Positions 22,760 to 23,635 of a DNA stretch of 64,000 bases are shown piece by piece. Where the stretch lies: assembly GCF_057098645.1 (NCBI RefSeq), contig NZ_CM169472.1. One strand, 5' to 3'. A program made the translations under genes and the position numbers. Under the pieces are notes generated by a model, which worked only from the letters and a program-made list of their open reading frames with translations, did not search any database and was not told the DNA's origin. Each line of letters opens with the position of its first letter. Positions within the stretch are counted from its first letter, which is position 1.

Positions 22760-23635
22760 TTAACGAGTTACGGCTTCGTTTTCTTTATTTTCTTTCACCC
22801 GCTTAAAGTTCACATCCATTTGCGGGTACGGGAAGCTGATACCGGCGGCATCAAATTCACGTTTAATACGCTCCAGCACATCCCAGTACACGTTTTGCAG
22901 ATCGCCGCTGTTGCTCCAGACGCGGACCACGAAATTAATCGACGATGCACCAAGTTCGTTCAGGCGCACAGTCATTTCGCGATCTTTCAAAATGCGATCT
23001 TCAGACTGGATAATATTGGTCAGGATCTGCTTAACCTGATCGATATCGGAATCATACGCCACGCCAATAATAAATTCGTTACGGCGAACTGGCTCGCGGG
23101 AGAAGTTAATAATATTTCCGGCAATAATTTTACCGTTCGGAATAACGATAATTTTACCGTCTGCAGTACGCATGGTGGTGGAGAAAATCTGCACACTCAG
23201 CACAGTACCGGCTACGCCGCCGAGGTCAACATATTCTCCGGCACGGAACGGGCGGAACATGACAAGTAACACGCCAGCGGCCAGGTTAGACAGTGACCCC
23301 TGCAAAGCCAAACCAACAGCTAAGCCTGCGGCACCGAGTACAGCAATGACGGACGCGGTTTGTACACCCACGCGTCCCAGTGCAGCGATTAGCGTAAAGG
23401 CGATAATACCGTAACGGACTAATGCAGAAAGAAAATCAGCAACAGTGGCATCGATTTTACGGGAGATCATCAGGCGATTCACCGCGTTGGAAATCATCCG
23501 CGCGATAATCAAACCAACGATGATGATCGCGAGTGCCGCCACGATGTTTACTGCATAACTTAGCAGCAGCGCCTGGTTAGCCACCAGCCAGCTTCCCGCG
23601 CCGTTTATGCTATCGACAACATTCAAATCTTCCAT
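22760..23635 (-). CDS. mscS: small-conductance mechanosensitive channel MscS
   Basis: 291 aa; [36 protein letters not shown]-terminal tail [11 protein letters not shown]. Confidence 0.93.

Follow-up and report, generated by a model that had tools for sequence, protein, structure and literature searches.

A 291-residue MscS allele of Escherichia coli whose divergent tail very probably marks the end of an old argO-mscS spacer haplotype

The mscS gene described here lies in a window of 64,000 nucleotides (the whole stretch of DNA that was analysed; contig NZ_CM169472.1 of the RefSeq assembly GCF_057098645.1) and encodes a product of 291 aa. In this window, the spacer between argO and mscS carries two additional genes, a hypothetical gene termed hyp309 and an orphan gene for a TRAP substrate-binding protein (SBP) that is convergent on mscS, followed by a GC-rich hairpin between the two stop codons. 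The features of the region are as follows:

19849 to 20484, minus strand: argO, the left flank (ORF, annotation and alignment)
20563 to 22782, no strand assigned: 2,220-bp segment missing from K-12-type E. coli (BLAST breakpoints)
20691 to 21620, plus strand: hyp309, a 309-aa hypothetical gene of the two-gene form of the spacer (ORF)
21675 to 22718, plus strand: orphan DctP-family TRAP SBP gene, 347 aa (RefSeq start; the longest ORF begins at 21642)
22728 to 22750, no strand assigned: GC-rich hairpin GCGCCCATGAA-c-TTCATGGGCGC separating the stop codons of the two convergent genes (RNA fold and inverted repeat)
22760 to 22789, minus strand: C-terminal tail of MscS, codons N283 to R291 (NKENEAVTR) plus the stop codon (translation and lineage alignment)
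22760 to 23635, minus strand: mscS, 291-aa allele, RefSeq WP_000389820.1 (ORF, Pfam, NCBIfam and PDB match)

By every sequence criterion tested, the window protein is MscS. The allele is already known, being catalogued in RefSeq under this product name (WP_000389820.1). Matches to PF05552, PF21088, PF00924 and PF21082 all exceeded the gathering cut-offs, and the protein has the conserved TM helix, TM2/3, the beta-domain and the C-terminal alpha-beta domain. The NCBIfam model PRK10334 (NF007662) gave 620.6 bits at a cut-off of 321, with residues 1-285 aligned to a model of 286 positions. Orthology to the solved E. coli channel is further supported by the gene order epd-pgk-fbaA-mscS in the window and by complete identity of residues 1-282 to the solved E. 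coli MscS chains (2oau, 6rld, 7onj and others). The first difference to the PDB sequences is D283N; K284 is shared, and the sequences are divergent thereafter. The original prediction had assumed a reference of 286 aa with a different short tail, which proved correct: after the identical 282 residues, NKENEAVTR stands against DKAA, and the protein of K-12-type E. coli (locus L002) has 286 aa and ends in FKRVKEDKAA. The K-12 ending (KEDKAA, 286 aa) is thus absent from the 291-aa protein. Such an ending is not a family-defining feature, because MscS lengths range from 285 to 293 aa and the entropy of the tail reaches 1.55 bits.

At the DNA level, the two endings are unrelated. BLAST homology between the window and K-12-type genomes stops at 20562 on the argO side and resumes at 22783 on the mscS side, and the positions 22760-22782, together with everything leftward to 20563, are without counterpart in the K-12-type genomes. 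In these, 68 private and unrelated base pairs take the place of the 2,220-bp segment and provide their own stop codon and terminator hairpin. A search for the 68 bp inside the long haplotypes of five lineages gave no significant match. The tail difference reflects a replacement of DNA and not a frameshift. Within the tail, the mscS DNA contains a 9-bp near-tandem repeat (AAAGAAAAT/AAAGAAAAC), which encodes KEN-KEN.

Two further differences to K-12-type genomes were observed elsewhere in the window. The mscS-fbaA spacer measures 190 bp (23636-23825) compared to 358 bp in the K-12-type, which contains a REP/BIME-like insert with a duplicated fbaA terminator (L002 5020-5150) that is absent from the window. 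Moreover, srsR, which encodes a LysR-type regulator (17953-18849, minus strand), has an in-frame stop at codon 69 in place of the glutamine of the K-12-type (Q69 to stop, around 18643-18645) and has probably become a pseudogene here.

The SBP gene in the argO-mscS spacer belongs to the DctP family, with 72.1 bits for PF03480 (cut-off 23.4) and 61.6 bits for NF037995 (cut-off 50); the score for TIGR00787 was 20 bits, far below the cut-off of 175. DctQ or DctM genes were found between argO and mscS neither in the window nor in any of the related loci examined. Homologues with 52-55% identity, likewise orphans, are encoded in other contexts in Buttiauxella and Hafnia (loci compared: window 21675-22718, L009 3974-5020 and L027 3501-4538). 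In Buttiauxella the gene has a DUF1451 gene on one side and an amino-acid ABC transporter on the other; in Hafnia it adjoins an AraC regulator and a GFO/IDH oxidoreductase. The neighbouring hyp309 had no match in Pfam or NCBIfam. It is intact, with full coverage, in 37 E. coli genomes, and occurs with 90.5% identity in E. marmotae and 87% in the Escherichia lineage L004.

The SBP gene and mscS have their stop codons 41 bp apart. The hairpin between them folds with -25 kcal/mol (z = -6.7) and lies at the centre of an imperfect palindrome of 26 nt (22713-22765), which spans both stop codons and holds them in its outer arms (CGTTAA and TTAACG). Its stem is retained in Superficieibacter, including a compensatory change from T-A to C-G. 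As the hairpin has no T-run, a simple terminator scan made no call at this position. An Rfam scan of window positions 20300-24000 (E <= 1) gave no match. Judged by fold energy, z-score and conservation instead of the terminator scan, the hairpin is a probable transcript-end structure shared by the SBP gene and mscS.

To determine the frequency of both endings, we surveyed 5,426 complete E. coli genomes, 5,425 of them with mscS, using a 66-bp probe for the long tail and a 73-bp probe for the K-12 ending. Matches to the long-tail probe were found in 216 genomes, complete in 214 and partial or disrupted in 2; the K-12 probe matched 5,209 (5,207 in full, plus 2). Since both numbers add up to the 5,425 mscS-bearing genomes, the endings are mutually exclusive alleles with shares of about 4% and 96%. 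A 701-bp probe that reached from the 3' part of the SBP gene across the tail into mscS was found with full coverage in the same 214 genomes, and in all other genomes the match starts exactly at the tail breakpoint. Accordingly, the SBP gene is present in 214 of the 214 intact long-tail genomes, and both tail and SBP gene are missing from every K-12-type genome. Over this region, the window shows 100% identity to C325, UTME-3 and two isolates of Z1323HEC; for O145:H28 strains the value is 99.8%.

One of the two exceptional long-tail genomes is E. coli WP8-S18-ESBL-07, in which the IS21-family element ISEc62 (istA/istB) has inserted inside the long mscS tail (L014 3537-5643). The insertion site corresponds to window position 22771/22772, and mscS is still annotated there with 295 aa. 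In the second genome, the match to the long-tail probe was only partial.

Three forms of the spacer were found among the long-tail E. coli genomes. Most of them, including locus L003, have the order argO-SBP-mscS. The order argO-hyp309-SBP-mscS is present in the window and, with full coverage, in 37 genomes. In the third form, seen in locus L001 and other O145 strains, hyp309 is cut by an integrase and an IS3 element. In many O145 strains, as in E. coli O145 RM9872 (L001 1-3221), the truncated hyp309 has genes for a tyrosine integrase and an IS3 transposase directly to its left, at about window position 20925. A larger element has therefore entered the stretch from argO to the SBP gene in these strains. 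About 115 bp upstream of argO are conserved in every form. The junction between the one-gene and the two-gene form lies within the SBP gene, at its 5' end (window 21642-21700), with homology resuming at 21696, so that the two forms have different signal-peptide regions (MTFKHFLLSLVSG... and MHYRQLLPFLLSG...).

The arrangement is not restricted to E. coli. We found the order argO-SBP-mscS, with the same position and orientation, in E. whittamii, Escherichia sp. MOD1-EC7003 and the SCPM-O-B-8794 lineage, and in E. marmotae together with hyp309. It is also present in Superficieibacter sp. UBA5654 and a Superficieibacter-like MAG (L023), in Yokenella regensburgei, Klebsiella spallanzanii and Kluyvera cryocrescens, and in an Enterobacter-like metagenomic genome. 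The SBP gene thus occupies the same place in at least six genera, that is, in Escherichia, with four or more lineages outside E. coli, and in five or more further genera, and all SBP-bearing Escherichia species have an MscS tail of the ENKE..AVTR type. SBP identity to the window drops with phylogenetic distance; it is 93-100% among E. coli, 85-94% for the remaining Escherichia and 54-82% outside the genus. In synonymous divergence (dS), the SBP gene is comparable to mscS and argO, as in the comparison with E. whittamii (0.31 for SBP, 0.47 for mscS and 0.55 for argO). The dN/dS values of 0.05-0.24 point to selection that maintains the SBP gene.

Two observations at these loci stand apart. In Kluyvera cryocrescens, an extra ORF of 106 aa without a Pfam match lies between the SBP gene and mscS (L026 4595-4915). 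A 1.4-kb contig assigned to a Collinsella sp. MAG (L005) carries the E. coli arrangement argO-SBP-mscS with 97-100% identity, and is almost certainly a binning contamination.

Loss of the gene by deletion was directly observed at this locus, as a decayed copy is retained in Klebsiella sp. RIT-PI-d (S. electus-like): its spacer consists of a frameshifted 3' remnant of the SBP gene (L015 4377-4746, E = 5e-7), which covers about residues 273-335, and the long MscS tail is kept. In the related Superficieibacter-like MAG, the SBP gene is intact. In Salmonella and Enterobacter kobei, argO follows directly after mscS and the SBP gene is absent.

These data bear on the direction of the change. The original prediction had ascribed the remodelled 3' end of mscS to an adjoining inserted islet. 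The link to extra downstream DNA was borne out by the co-occurrence of tail and SBP gene described above; the idea of an insertion as its cause was not, given the same SBP position in at least six genera and the absence of flanking repeats and mobility genes, and it probably has the direction the wrong way round. Direct or inverted repeats were not found at the segment junctions, and the only ORFs of the 2,220-bp segment are hyp309 and the SBP gene, with no mobility genes among them. An integrase and IS3 are present solely as a secondary insertion in the O145 strains. The segment does not qualify as a mobile islet, be it an IS, a transposon or an integrative element.

We infer that the long form is ancestral. 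The long haplotype, which comprises the convergent orphan SBP gene, in some genomes also hyp309, and the shared GC-rich hairpin, would be older than the species E. coli and probably older than the genus Escherichia. In the approximately 96% of E. coli that include K-12, 68 bp with a different stop codon and terminator stand where the long form has the SBP gene, hairpin and final mscS codons, and this form most likely arose by deletion or replacement. The 286-aa MscS of K-12 would then probably be the derived state, with the argO/SBP/long-tail mscS arrangement lost in the lineage of most E. coli and, in separate events, from Salmonella and other taxa. On balance, the SBP gene rather probably is an old resident of the enterobacterial spacer that was lost repeatedly, and the K-12-type mscS end a derived one.

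Several points hold back our confidence in this direction. The Escherichia comparison behind it did not include E. albertii and E. fergusonii. A simple deletion is inadequate for the K-12 form, because its private 68 bp are not derivable from the long haplotype. The short tail could also be old, since the K-12 ending EDKAA resembles DNAAE of Salmonella and a part of DNKAAHAE of Yokenella. Finally, the sole significant match between the K-12 and Salmonella spacers comprises 23 bp (p ~0.003), mostly argO-upstream sequence that is partly kept by all forms.

In the opposite course, the short K-12 end is ancestral for Escherichia, and an islet with the SBP gene, alone or together with hyp309, came from another enterobacterium by insertion or recombination and exchanged the last mscS codons for foreign sequence. 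This would agree with the predominance of the short form in E. coli and with the short tails (285-287 aa) of Salmonella and many other genera without SBP; the K-12 and Salmonella tails, equal in length, both contain AA, and the 23-bp match falls in the private K-12 spacer. However, we consider such an import unlikely. The block is found at the identical position in the other Escherichia lineages and genera listed above, its divergence tracks that of the flanking genes, its junctions are devoid of insertion signatures, and it decays in situ in one lineage. Repeated targeted gain at one spacer is also less likely than repeated loss.

The consequences of the longer tail for the channel were addressed by conservation analysis. 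Outgroup MscS sequences, including Salmonella, were obtained by a protein search with the Superficieibacter MscS and a cluster look-up. Among 230 distinct enterobacterial MscS proteins, the entropy per column stays near 0.2 bits up to residue 280 and rises to 1.55 bits for residues 281-291. The endings are varied (e.g. DREKEQEASPEM), and even the long class includes the variants NEAVTR, SEAVTR, SEVVSR, REAVTR and SDAVTR. Outside Escherichia, tail length is independent of the SBP gene: K. spallanzanii has the gene and an MscS of 285 aa, E. kobei lacks it and has 290 aa. In MscS crystal structures, residues are modelled to about 280. Some PDB chains of MscS are C-terminally extended, with 292 and 294 aa, and others end at 280/281. 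An AlphaFold2 monomer model of the 291-aa protein, based on a 54-sequence alignment, had a mean pLDDT of 56 and was poor throughout, not specifically in the tail.

Residues 266-286 have been described as the C-terminal beta-barrel, which affects the stability of MscS and its recovery from inactivation (PMC4440785). According to the same paper, which cites Schumann et al. 2004, a delta266-286 mutant has partial protection left and recovers poorly from inactivation. Constructs with a C-terminal His6 tag are in routine use, and the bulky YFP tag at this end alters MscS behaviour and disturbs an FtsZ-related phenotype (PMC4440785).

Judged by its sequence, the divergent tail appears as a stub beyond the beta-barrel that is free to evolve in sequence and length across the Enterobacteriaceae. 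We infer that it is functionally neutral and would not expect a change in function, because the tail varies in entropy and length, tagged and truncated channels are in use, and the ISEc62 insertion is tolerated. That the longer tail might instead be adaptive, acting on channel behaviour (beta-barrel, recovery, FtsZ interaction) or through a hairpin that couples mscS expression to the SBP gene, appears very improbable. The reported effects of the beta-barrel and of YFP would fit such a role, as would the retention of ENKE..AVTR, with substitutions, across Escherichia species and the compensatory change in the conserved hairpin stem. The tail is nevertheless the least conserved part of MscS, it varies freely within the long-tail class, His-tagged and truncated versions serve as functional or structured channels, and in one E. 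coli strain it accommodates an IS21-family element. We rejected an artefact, be it an error of sequencing or assembly or a shifted frame that extends the ORF, as practically inconceivable: the (near-)identical sequence occurs in 214 complete genomes and several species, the DNA is replaced and not frameshifted, and no point speaks in favour of an artefact.

Taken together, the 291-aa MscS is very probably a natural and functionally ordinary allele, whose tail is the end of an old argO-mscS spacer haplotype. It would be of little consequence for MscS biology, as the change is limited to the unconserved stub past the beta-barrel. If the K-12 form is indeed derived, the window keeps the older state of the mscS end. 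Differences to K-12 beside strain-specific DNA need not be insertion scars, and in this case it is the reference that probably lost DNA. The comparison also points to a conserved orphan TRAP-type SBP under purifying selection in the argO-mscS spacer of many Enterobacteriaceae. Our literature search yielded no paper on the argO-SBP-mscS polymorphism.

Compared with known systems, the window protein shares residues 1-282 and the Pfam set (TM helices, beta-domain, alpha-beta domain and C-terminal strand) with MscS of E. coli K-12 (YggB; 286 aa; PDB 2OAU, 6RLD and others), and mscS lies downstream of fbaA in both. After E282, K-12 MscS has the four residues DKAA, whereas the window protein has nine and is five residues longer. 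Downstream of the K-12 gene a private terminator is followed directly by argO, in contrast to the hairpin and the convergent SBP gene in the window. In non-coli Escherichia, such as E. marmotae and E. whittamii, MscS also has 291 aa and a tail of the ENKE..AVTR type, and the convergent SBP gene and the hairpin are present as in the window; these tails differ from the window by 1-3 substitutions (SDAVTR, REAVTR, SEVVSR) at an overall identity of 94-98%. The window SBP matches PF03480 and NF037995 like other DctP-family TRAP SBPs and has, by eye, a putative N-terminal segment resembling a signal peptide. TRAP transporters, however, are defined by their membrane partners DctQ and DctM, and the SBP locus of the window is without both.
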